A stretch of 64,000 nucleotides of DNA from Escherichia coli. Its GTDB lineage: Bacteria; Pseudomonadota; Gammaproteobacteria; Enterobacterales; Enterobacteriaceae. The position numbers were made by a program, and so were the translations under genes. Positions 104 to 2,047 of this stretch are shown piece by piece; within the stretch, counting starts at the first letter, position 1; each line of letters opens with the position of its first letter. The notes below the pieces were generated by a model. It saw only the letters and a list, made by a program, of their open reading frames with translations. It was not told the DNA's origin and searched no databases. The DNA is taken from the NCBI RefSeq assembly GCF_003334355.1, contig NZ_QOWP01000005.1; one strand, 5' to 3'.

Positions 104-1318
104 TTAATGATGAGCCCATTCGATGCTGTTCAGATCCACGCCCTGCTTGTACATTTCCCACAGCGGAGAAAGGTCACGCAGACGACCGATGGATTTACGA
201 ACTAACTCGATGGTGTAGTCGATCTCTTCTTCAGTAGTAAAACGACCTAAAGAGAAACGGATAGAGCTATGTGCCAGCTCGTCGTTCAGCCCCAGCGCGC
301 GCAGCACGTAGGACGGTTCGAGGCTTGCTGACGTACAGGCGGAACCGGAAGAAACCGCGAGGTCTTTCAGCGCCATAATCAGCGACTCACCTTCAACGTA
401 GTTGAAGCTGACGTTGAGAATGTTCGGCGCACCGTGTTCCAGGTCACCGTTCAGGTAAACTTCTTCGATATCTTTGATGCCGTTCCACAGACGGTTACGC
501 AGTCCGCGCAGACGTTCCATCTCGGTCGCCATCTCTTCTTTTGCGATGCGATAGGCTTCGCCCATTCCGACGATCTGGTGAACAGGCAGAGTGCCGGAAC
601 GCATACCGCGTTCGTGACCGCCGCCGTGCATTTGCGCTTCGATGCGTACGCGCGGTTTACGACGCACATACAGCGCACCAATACCTTTCGGGCCATAGAT
701 TTTGTGACCGGAGAAAGACATCAGGTCAACTTTCAACTGGCTCAGATCGATAGGCAGTTTGCCCACGCTCTGGGTTGCATCAACGTGATAGATAATGCCA
801 CGAGCACGGCACATTTCGCCGATAGCCGCGATATCCTGTACCACGCCGATTTCGTTATTCACGTGCATGATAGAAACGAGGATGGTGTCGTCACGCATCG
901 CTGCTTCAAGTTCTTTCAGGTCGATAATGCCGTTACGCTGCGGTGCCAGGTAGGTGACTTCAAAACCTTCGCGCTCCAGCTGACGGCAGGTATCCAGTAC
1001 CGCTTTGTGTTCAGTTTTGCTGGTGATGATGTGCTTGCCTTTTTTCTGATAAAAGTTGGCTGCACCTTTGATCGCCAGGTTGTCAGATTCGGTTGCACCA
1101 GAGGTAAAGACGATTTCACGCGGATCAGCGCCGACCAGATCGGCAATCTGATTACGGGCGATATCTACCGCTTCTTCAGCCTGCCAGCCGAAACGGTGAG
1201 AACGGGAGGCCGGGTTACCAAAGGTTCCGTCCATCGTCATAAACTGCATCATTTTCTCGGCAACACGCGGGTCCACCGGCGTGGTTGCGGAGTAGTCGAG
1301 ATAAATCGGTAATTTCAT
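104..1318 (-). CDS. iscS: Cysteine desulfurase IscS (404 aa)
   Basis: ORF 104..1342 translation matches IscS; trimmed to internal [14 protein letters not shown] start (ATG complement at 1316-1318), preceded by GGAG. Confidence 0.95.
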
Positions 1319-1558
1319 TGCTCTATAAACTCCGTACATCACTCAATGCAAGGAATCAGGCTACCGGCTGGATGTACGACCGTGTTTACGGAACGCGATA
1401 CGCCCCGGCCTGATTCTAATATCTTGTTATCTTTAACCTAACTGTTTCGGGTTTCAGCAAGTTGACAAACTTACGAATCTCCGGGAGCTTACATAAGTAA
1501 GTGACCGGAGTGAGTATGTGCAGTCAACGCAGATGCAACACGAAACAGGACGGTTAAA

Positions 1559-2047
1559 TTAAGCGCGTAACTTAACGTCGATCGCGTCTTGTATGCGGGT
1601 GCGTGGCGCGTCGTGAGTATGCTGACGACCAGACACATCCAGCACTTCCTGGTTATTAACCAGTTCGCCTAAAGTAATGTTGTTGAGAAAACCGGTGAGA
1701 CGGTCGCTCAAATCACGCCACAGCGCGTGGGTCAGGCATTTATCACCGCCCTGGCAGCCGCCTTTACCCTGACAACGAGTAGCATCTACAGATTCGTCAA
1801 CGGCGCTAATCACTTCGCCAACGGCGATGCTGCTGGCATCTTTGCCTAACAGATAACCACCGCCTGGTCCACGTACGCTGGAAACCAGACCATTTTTACG
1901 CAGACGGGAAAACAGTTGTTCCAGATAAGAAAGGGAAATTCCCTGACGTTCGGAAATATCAGCCAACGGTACCGGGCCCGCTTCAGAGTTGAGCGCAACG
2001 TCAAGCATTGCGGTCACGGCATAGCGCCCTTTAGATGTCAGTCTCAT
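1559..2047 (-). CDS. iscR: Fe-S cluster regulator IscR (Rrf2 family, 162 aa)
   Basis: ORF translation [17 protein letters not shown]... with C-terminal Cys cluster; position upstream of iscS. Confidence 0.95.

Follow-up and report, generated by a model that had tools for sequence, protein, structure and literature searches.

What occupies the spacer between iscR and iscS in this strain, and is the switch that acts there altered by it? According to papers that cite the original work, RyhB base-pairs in the interval between iscR and iscS, after which the 3′ part of the transcript is removed by RNase E, and in K-12 a stabilising structure preserves the iscR fragment. In the window (the whole 64,000-nt stretch of Escherichia coli DNA that was analysed) the spacer lies on the minus strand at 1319-1558. 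It is bounded by the iscR coding sequence (1559-2047, minus strand, 162 aa), which was assigned from the open reading frame list and the RefSeq annotation of matching E. coli genomes and whose 3′ end aligned with that of K-12, and by the iscS coding sequence (104-1318, minus strand, 404 aa from the ATG at 1318), assigned from the same two sources. A REP cluster lies between trmJ and iscR at 2190-2400. An earlier reading of the sequence alone (the sequence-only reading) had given the spacer as 240 bp, called this long for a junction within an operon and left open whether K-12 had the same length. The spacer between the iscR stop and the iscS start is exactly 240 nt, compared with 111 nt in MG1655. 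Alignment to the MG1655 spacer, which had been proposed as a check, placed a net 129-bp insertion directly after the iscR stop codon (TAA, 1561 to 1559, minus strand), which is the same with or without the insertion.

The sequence-only reading was right to place a RyhB-controlled junction here, but the extra length lies outside that regulatory structure and corresponds to a 129-bp ERIC/IRU element. In our judgement the 240-nt spacer very probably consists of two independently folding RNA modules within the iscRSUA mRNA, with an ERIC that is tolerated or modest in effect and a switch that is not rewired. The spacer had also been described as structured, and this was borne out by RNA folding (minimum free energy (MFE) of -77.4 kcal/mol, z = -3.7, equalled by 0 of 200 shuffles). 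Promoter-like sites were absent from 1200-2250 in a promoter/terminator scan, and the only two terminator-like sites found were both outside the spacer; an ERIC-borne iscS promoter or attenuator was therefore rejected. The spacer is presumably co-transcribed with iscRSUA.

The iscS-proximal module comprises 111 nt (1319-1429) on the coding strand between the iscR stop and the iscS start. cmscan matched 1320-1429 (minus strand) to Rfam family RF01517, the iscR stability element and RyhB-responsive iscS leader, over the full length of the model (positions 1-110 of 110), with a score of 117.3 bits (E = 3.5e-31), the gathering threshold being 40. The 85 nt next to iscS were 100% identical to those of K-12 and other E. 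coli. Covariation was assessed on 13 homologous elements from six taxa (E. coli, Enterobacter, Klebsiella, Buttiauxella, Franconibacter and one further relative). The RF01517 structure paired in 96.5% of the cells of this alignment, compared with 32-48% for slid controls, and two-sided changes were found at 8 pairs, against 2.1 in shuffles (reached in 0 of 500). The element shares with the iscRS element of RyhB-dependent iscRSUA differential decay (Desnoyers et al., 2009) its location and its covarying helices, and RyhB pairing is predicted over the Shine-Dalgarno sequence and AUG. By analogy with the K-12 mechanism, this copy of RF01517 should protect the iscR fragment when RyhB acts.

Compared with the K-12 element, the window copy lies 129 nt further from the iscR stop, carries an altered linker and has an alternative hairpin-tip allele. 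The AU-rich linker (1416-1429, minus strand), identified by alignment, forms the first 14 nt of the iscRS element; it reads UAACAAGAUAUUAG in the mRNA and departs at 4 of its 14 positions from the sequence UAAAAAGAAUUCAG seen at every empty site that was examined, so that the filled allele is not simply K-12 plus an ERIC. The filled-type linker was found in 455 genomes, which does not exceed the 490 ERIC carriers described below, and it adjoins the ERIC in strain E2865. These genome counts accordingly gave no sign of empty sites with the filled-type linker, that is, of excision footprints. The linker breaks two of the five pairs of the RF01517 outer helix. That helix is weak (86% paired) and is already broken in 8 of the 13 sequences across taxa, and its disruption was for this reason dropped as a point of interest. 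The tip of the second hairpin (1390-1406, minus strand, by alignment) carries the allele GGGGCGUAUCGCGUUCC, where K-12 has GGAGUGCUAAAUACUCC; the stem pairs of this hairpin (helix 3) covary. The same tip allele is present at an empty site in strain CP66-6 and is therefore independent of the ERIC.

RyhB pairing was predicted with the actual MG1655 RyhB sequence. A duplex with the whole molecule (-54.7 kcal/mol, shuffle mean -52.9) was dominated by giant interior loops and uninformative, and was replaced by a local duplex scan with the RyhB core. The best local duplex reached -23.9 kcal/mol at 1345 to 1316, a value reached by 4% of dinucleotide shuffles. This region (1316-1345, minus strand) covers the Shine-Dalgarno sequence and the iscS AUG, and the predicted duplex contains a perfect 8-bp stretch, GAGCAAUG:CAUUGCUC. 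The Shine-Dalgarno sequence itself, read from the sequence as GGAG (1330-1333, minus strand), is predicted to be paired in both the filled and the K-12 contexts. The predicted site is identical in sequence to that of K-12, where pairing has been shown experimentally according to the citing literature. The sequence-only reading had placed complementarity to RyhB in a segment just upstream of the iscS start. The local scan gave a stronger predicted site across the Shine-Dalgarno sequence and AUG, but the segment that had been named was not above background, its duplex of -16.0 kcal/mol being weaker than the shuffle mean of -18.3.

Two complementary segment pairs had been proposed from the sequence as well. 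In the first, gatgtacg was correctly placed at 1371-1378, but cgtacatc lies at 1333-1340 rather than at 1336-1343, a shift of 3 nt. In the mRNA, the upstream half (CGUACAUC; 1371-1378, minus strand) falls within the conserved 12-nt loop of consensus helix 4, and the downstream half (GAUGUACG; 1333-1340, minus strand, corrected coordinates) lies 5′ of the Shine-Dalgarno sequence and overlaps it. As a secondary structure this pair was not upheld: neither the MFE fold nor the Rfam consensus contains it, it showed no covariation and it competes with consensus helix 5 of RF01517, which 1333-1340 overlaps. When the 111-nt part was shuffled, an 8-bp inverted repeat arose about 5% of the time. Pairing was compatible in 96% of cells among the 13 sequences, with 0 two-sided changes, because the 3′ strand (1333-1340) is invariant in 13 of 13. 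This strand (GAUGUACGG) is also kept in Serratia and Yersinia, in spacers of 55-68 nt without the upstream partner. As an isolated duplex the pair was calculated at -9.6 kcal/mol, against -2.9 kcal/mol for the competing local hairpin, and a loop-to-Shine-Dalgarno pseudoknot through 1371-1378 and 1333-1340 is possible on these modelled energies.

The distal module (1430-1558, minus strand) is delimited by the net 129-bp insertion relative to empty sites and, on its alignment with members of the family, is an ERIC/IRU miniature inverted-repeat element. Read as mRNA it runs TTTAACCGTCC...GGTTAAAGA, its first base following the iscR stop without a gap; the part matched by the profile (1433-1557) starts one base after the start of the net insertion. 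A leave-one-out ERIC profile matched it with nhmmer at E = 7e-29, and a profile built from three E. coli paralogs alone at E = 1.2e-25. The spacer copy was the sole significant ERIC match in the window, in which its 21-nt core is unique. Full-length alignments were obtained with the copies between cusC and cusF, between lpdA and aceF, and after ybiT; the examples examined were intergenic. An ERIC-free origin of the 129 bp was excluded by these alignments. The conserved central core (1473-1516) was located by primer matching with the ERIC-PCR primers, whose strings were verified by their joint occurrence in 233 publications: ERIC1R matched 18 of 22 positions at 1473-1494 (minus strand) and ERIC2 matched 18 of 22 at 1495-1516 (plus strand).

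Reviews give ERIC a length of 127 bp and describe it as a miniature inverted-repeat element, with inverted repeats at its ends and a TA target that is duplicated. The insertion of 129 bp fits 127 + 2 bp, and TA follows its right end. On the left flank the TAA stop is followed by TT. A TA target duplication is not visible, and the 14 nt of linker adjoining the element are diverged. Against the consensus of the remaining aligned copies, the spacer ERIC shows a divergence of about 20%. Diverged relatives (60-80% identity, 87-89% coverage) occupied 33,248 places across 5,424 genomes (median 7 per genome), and none of the E. coli loci found carried a copy more than 80% identical to the spacer ERIC, which leaves no evident source copy. 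The element thus resembles the ERIC/IRU family in its length, its primer-matching core, its long imperfect hairpin, its intergenic position, its dispersal, its polymorphism between strains and its place next to a stop codon, as at other loci. It differs from a typical member in sharing no more than 60-80% identity with any other copy in E. coli, in lacking an evident TA duplication, in the degeneration of the AU-rich stretch of its 3′ arm and in its position inside a characterised sRNA-regulated operon junction.

On its own the ERIC folds into a hairpin of -45.8 kcal/mol. The second pair of the sequence-only reading belongs to this hairpin: ctgtttcg (1442-1449) and cgaaacag (1541-1548) were exact and paired in the MFE fold, but they form the lower stem of the ERIC and not a structure of the RyhB element. 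In the mRNA the 5′ arm of the lower stem is CUGUUUCG (1541-1548, minus strand; the exact reverse complement of 1442-1449) and the 3′ arm is CGAAACAG (1442-1449, minus strand). Among eight ERIC copies, compensatory change was found at 18 of 40 consensus hairpin pairs. Of the 18 substitutions that are private to the window copy and fall in paired columns, 14 make up seven compensatory pairs. The copy keeps 38 of the 40 pairs, compared with 26.2 ± 2.1 under random placement of the changes (P < 0.0002), and is therefore not decaying freely. Upkeep of the hairpin may stem from selection acting on the RNA or on the inverted repeats as DNA, or from templated repair of the palindrome.

The effect of the insertion on the switch was modelled by folding the spacer with and without it. 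The fold of the proximal element was essentially unchanged, and no contacts between the ERIC and the proximal element were predicted. Unpaired probabilities of the Shine-Dalgarno sequence, the AUG and the RyhB seed were 0.00, 0.21 and 0.32 in the filled context and 0.00, 0.20 and 0.32 in K-12, in thermodynamic models that ignore pseudoknots, proteins and co-transcriptional folding. From these values we infer that the ERIC neither occludes nor exposes the region of RyhB pairing and the Shine-Dalgarno sequence. Since the 85 nt nearest iscS are those of K-12, the RyhB switch should work unchanged. The AU-rich linker is predicted to be mostly unpaired (probability 0.65) and is the most accessible stretch.

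The distribution of the insertion was determined in 5,426 complete E. coli genomes. The full 240-nt spacer was present in 490-491 of them (about 9%, or 1 in 11); the remaining 91% or so gave a 311-bp match equal to the query minus 129 bp, that is, a 111-nt empty site. Each of 490 carriers has one chromosomal copy, with at least 99% identity. Carriers include HS, ATCC 8739, O26:H11 11368, O111:H- 11128, O103 strains and ETEC; the named strains span phylogroups A and B1. The site is empty in K-12, O157:H7 EC4115 and JJ1886.

Beyond E. coli, when one genome of each species was scanned with a strict core pattern, Enterobacter sp. kpr-6 proved to have an ERIC in this position; the count across species is a lower bound, since this pattern missed Buttiauxella. 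Sampling of IscR homologues recovered two Buttiauxella species in which a full-length ERIC, oriented as in E. coli, directly follows the iscR stop, the Buttiauxella junction (TAA|TTTACCCGTC) matching the register of the E. coli one (TAA|TTTAACCGTC). Genomes whose IscR is identical to that of Enterobacter sp. kpr-6 have spacers of either 246 nt or 139 nt, and the kpr-6 group is thus also polymorphic. Other taxa have spacers of 113-180 nt with different or unidentifiable inserts. A suggestion is that spacers of intermediate length carry ERIC remnants; a 178-nt spacer of Klebsiella sp. matched at E = 0.029 only, and neither the 139-nt spacer of Enterobacter nor the 180-nt spacer gave a significant ERIC match. 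ERICs of the iscRS locus are 76-86% alike across genera, compared with 66-70% between the E. coli copy and its own paralogs. This likeness hints at a shared old insertion and is equally compatible with a preferred target site.

Taken further, the ERIC after the iscR stop might be an old, selectively maintained second module of the switch, common to Escherichia, Enterobacter and Buttiauxella, that tunes the survival of iscR relative to iscSUA mRNA. The shared junction register and orientation in three genera would fit such a role, as would the greater identity across genera than among paralogs and the seven compensatory pairs private to the E. coli copy. We nevertheless hold this to be improbable. 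Recurrence in three genera together with compensatory upkeep of the hairpin could mean that the element is functional rather than tolerated.

As to how the two modules would work, the proximal one is expected to act as in K-12, where RyhB pairs at the translation start of iscS under iron starvation, RNase E then degrades the iscSUA portion and the structure upstream of it shields the iscR fragment. The ERIC, most likely co-transcribed in iscRSUA, would place a hairpin of its own between iscR and the accessible AU-rich linker. With a strong hairpin in this position, the ERIC is most likely a 3′ barrier to the iscR fragment that is tolerated or redundant, and the switch is not rewired by it. Any functional effect of the insertion is probably modest, and the chance that it has no measurable effect is about even.

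Two readings of the spacer as a whole bear on this arrangement. All 240 nt could form a single extended RyhB-related structure specific to the junction, since the whole spacer folds better than its shuffles and contains the RyhB site; however, the distal 129 nt belong to a repeat family dispersed over unrelated loci, are missing from 91% of E. coli genomes, fold alone without touching the proximal element and gave no RyhB-core duplex above background (best -13.4 kcal/mol). The identity of the ERIC, its absence from most genomes and its independent fold already contradict such a structure, which we regard as very improbable. An assembly or sequencing artefact, or complementarity by chance, is practically out of the question: the same 129 bp were found at the same site with 99-100% identity in 490 independent complete genomes, no shuffle folded as well as the spacer, and this explanation was rejected on both counts.

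The remaining alternatives give the ERIC opposite effects on iscR mRNA. It might be a ribosome-dependent destabiliser, in which ribosomes at the stop codon, at most 1 nt from the base of the hairpin, would keep the 5′ arm melted and thereby give RNase E access to the 3′ arm and to the AU-rich linker; iscR would then be cut away from RF01517, and IscR output would be lower than in K-12-type strains. Reviews on Yersinia ERICs describe co-transcribed elements with less stable upstream transcripts and, without defining the strand, an effect that depends on orientation and on ribosomes uncovering a site for RNase E within the 3′ inverted repeat. The spacer ERIC abuts the iscR stop codon, and when 15-23 nt from the stop were blocked to model a terminating ribosome, the 3′ arm became more accessible, its unpaired probability going from 0.29 to 0.47-0.63. 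In the model, however, the greater part of the hairpin withstands this melting of its base and would itself protect the iscR 3′ end. The consensus 3′ arm in the iscRS orientation contains an AU-rich run (GAAUUAUUUAGG), which favours the idea, but the run has degenerated to GAAACAGUUAGG in the window copy. Orientation was sampled at 41 distinct metagenomic ERIC loci, with open reading frame calls and ERIC boundaries that are approximate: copies at most 3 nt from a stop were 5:0 in the iscRS orientation, and several unrelated ones sat 0-2 nt after the stop in that orientation, whereas copies at most 20 nt from a stop were 8:6, which is no clear bias. Taken together, a destabilising role seems rather unlikely. 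Conversely, the hairpin could be an additional or alternative 3′ stabiliser that blocks 3′ exonucleases after RyhB-triggered cleavage, giving at least as much iscR fragment as in K-12 and a stronger apo-IscR response. A hairpin of this strength immediately 3′ of iscR, kept by compensatory change, is what such a role would call for, and the accessible linker between the ERIC and RF01517 is a plausible point of endonuclease entry, after which the fragment would end in the ERIC. De Gregorio and colleagues are said to have suggested in 2005 that one orientation of ERIC stabilises upstream RNA. Yet RF01517 already protects the fragment, so the gain may be nil, and the compensatory upkeep may arise at the DNA level, through the inverted repeats needed for mobility or templated palindrome repair; this role too we consider doubtful. 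A tolerated or redundant barrier remains the preferred reading.

Among known systems, the arrangement is most readily compared with other palindromic repeats in transcripts. Like the stop-adjacent ERICs of Yersinia enterocolitica (De Gregorio et al., 2005), the spacer ERIC directly follows an open reading frame and has a hairpin base that terminating ribosomes could melt; unlike them, it is followed in the window by a dedicated second stabilising structure. The iscR-iscS spacer of Yersinia is only 68 nt long and has no ERIC. REP/BIME elements are likewise palindromic repeats of operon spacers able to block 3′ exonucleases, but REPs are GC-rich and about 35-40 bp long, and the REP cluster at 2190-2400 bears no resemblance to the ERIC.

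The iscRS/RyhB element and the ERIC family were each known already; what is unreported in the literature searched is the unannotated copy at their junction. No earlier description of an ERIC between iscR and iscS was found in that literature, whose coverage left out most subscription journals (including Wilson & Sharp, 2006), and this ERIC has apparently not been described before. The ERIC at this site was unannotated in every genome examined, and differences in spacer length should therefore not be taken for a novel regulatory RNA.

Differential decay of a polycistronic mRNA driven by an sRNA has a textbook example in the iscR-iscS junction, and the mechanistic literature examined builds on the K-12 result. 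About 1 in 11 complete E. coli genomes has a 129-nt structured insertion exactly between iscR and the protective RNA element, and the carriers include the reference strains HS and ATCC 8739 and major non-O157 EHEC serogroups. Were the ERIC a maintained module after all, strains with and without it (in E. coli, including O26, O111 and O103 EHEC, and in Enterobacter) would be natural variants in the regulation of Fe-S cluster homeostasis. If the insertion alters the survival of iscR mRNA, the balance between Isc and Suf, which has been linked to stress and aminoglycoside tolerance, would be set differently in carriers. If it has no effect, it would be a clean natural demonstration that the switch is modular. 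The ERIC variant is thus a ready-made natural test of the modularity of an sRNA switch.

The position directly after the iscR stop appears to be a hot spot at which palindromes insert. Contigs that encode exactly the IscR of Enterobacter sp. kpr-6 were found with two spacer types, one of 246 nt with a full ERIC (L010) and one of 139 nt (L011-L013). The shorter spacer carries a 22-nt palindrome, TTACCGGACTCGCTTCCGGTAA, at the ERIC position; it has the terminal 5 nt at each side in common with ERIC and may be an internal-deletion remnant of it. Palindromic inserts of ~67-69 nt, other than the ERIC of the window (1430-1558, minus strand), lie directly 3' of the iscR stop in Klebsiella sp. (L014, L015 and L017; 178-nt spacer) and in L024, whose IscR is 96% identical to that of E. 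coli (180-nt spacer). An intact iscRS element, the Rfam iscR stability element, follows the insert in all four loci. Of these inserts, that of Klebsiella alone gave a marginal match to the ERIC right arm (E = 0.029).

Placement of ERIC at stop codons was also seen in several mutually unrelated metagenome loci (L059, L107, L118 and L063), where the left end (TATACCCGTC or AATACCC) lies 0-1 nt past a TAA or TGA stop or contributes part of the stop. It therefore seems common for ERIC to have inserted within, or next to, a stop codon that contains TA.

On the plus strand, the opposite one to that of the iscRS element, two sub-threshold Rfam matches were obtained. V_AS5 (RF02818) matched at 1432-1554 with 20.7 bits against a threshold of 96; despite this score the full model was covered and the match spans the entire ERIC. 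CssrA (RF02798) matched at 1504-1603 with 23.4 bits against a threshold of 93. Both families, curated as 'sRNA', may in fact derive from ERIC.

Upstream of iscR, the trmJ-iscR spacer holds a cluster of REP/BIME-type palindromes (2190-2400). The Rfam scan placed an naRNA4 unit (RF02564) at 2275-2346 on the minus strand (72.2 bits, threshold 59.5), flanked by four weaker copies. The spacer is 360 nt long in the window and 451 nt in MG1655, and the number of repeat units therefore varies among strains.

Within the iscRS element (1320-1429, minus strand), the tip of the second hairpin (1390-1406) occurs in E. coli as two strongly divergent alleles, GGGGCGUAUCGCG(U/C)UCC and GGAGUGCUAAA(U/C)ACUCC. 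In the alignment, compensatory changes keep the stem of this hairpin across both. The dimorphism is independent of ERIC, since CP66-6, a strain with the empty site, carries the first allele.

Positions 1371-1378, for which complementarity had been noted in the sequence-only reading, lie in the loop of helix 4 of the Rfam consensus structure, a strongly conserved stretch of 12 nt. They are complementary over 8 nt to 1333-1340, the invariant GAUGUACG that adjoins the iscS SD. The duplex was predicted at -9.6 kcal/mol, compared with -2.9 kcal/mol for the competing consensus hairpin, and covariation spoke neither for nor against the pairing. It is possible that this candidate pseudoknot would sequester the iscS SD flank.

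The spacers of Serratia (L031; 55 nt) and Yersinia enterocolitica (L034; 68 nt) contain none of the upstream iscRS helices, and in both the segment GGAAGUGAUGUACGGAGC..AAGAGCA-AUG is nearly unaltered. Because it is kept where these helices are missing, the SD-proximal 30 nt, the predicted RyhB site, are far older than the 'stability' structure and far more widely conserved.
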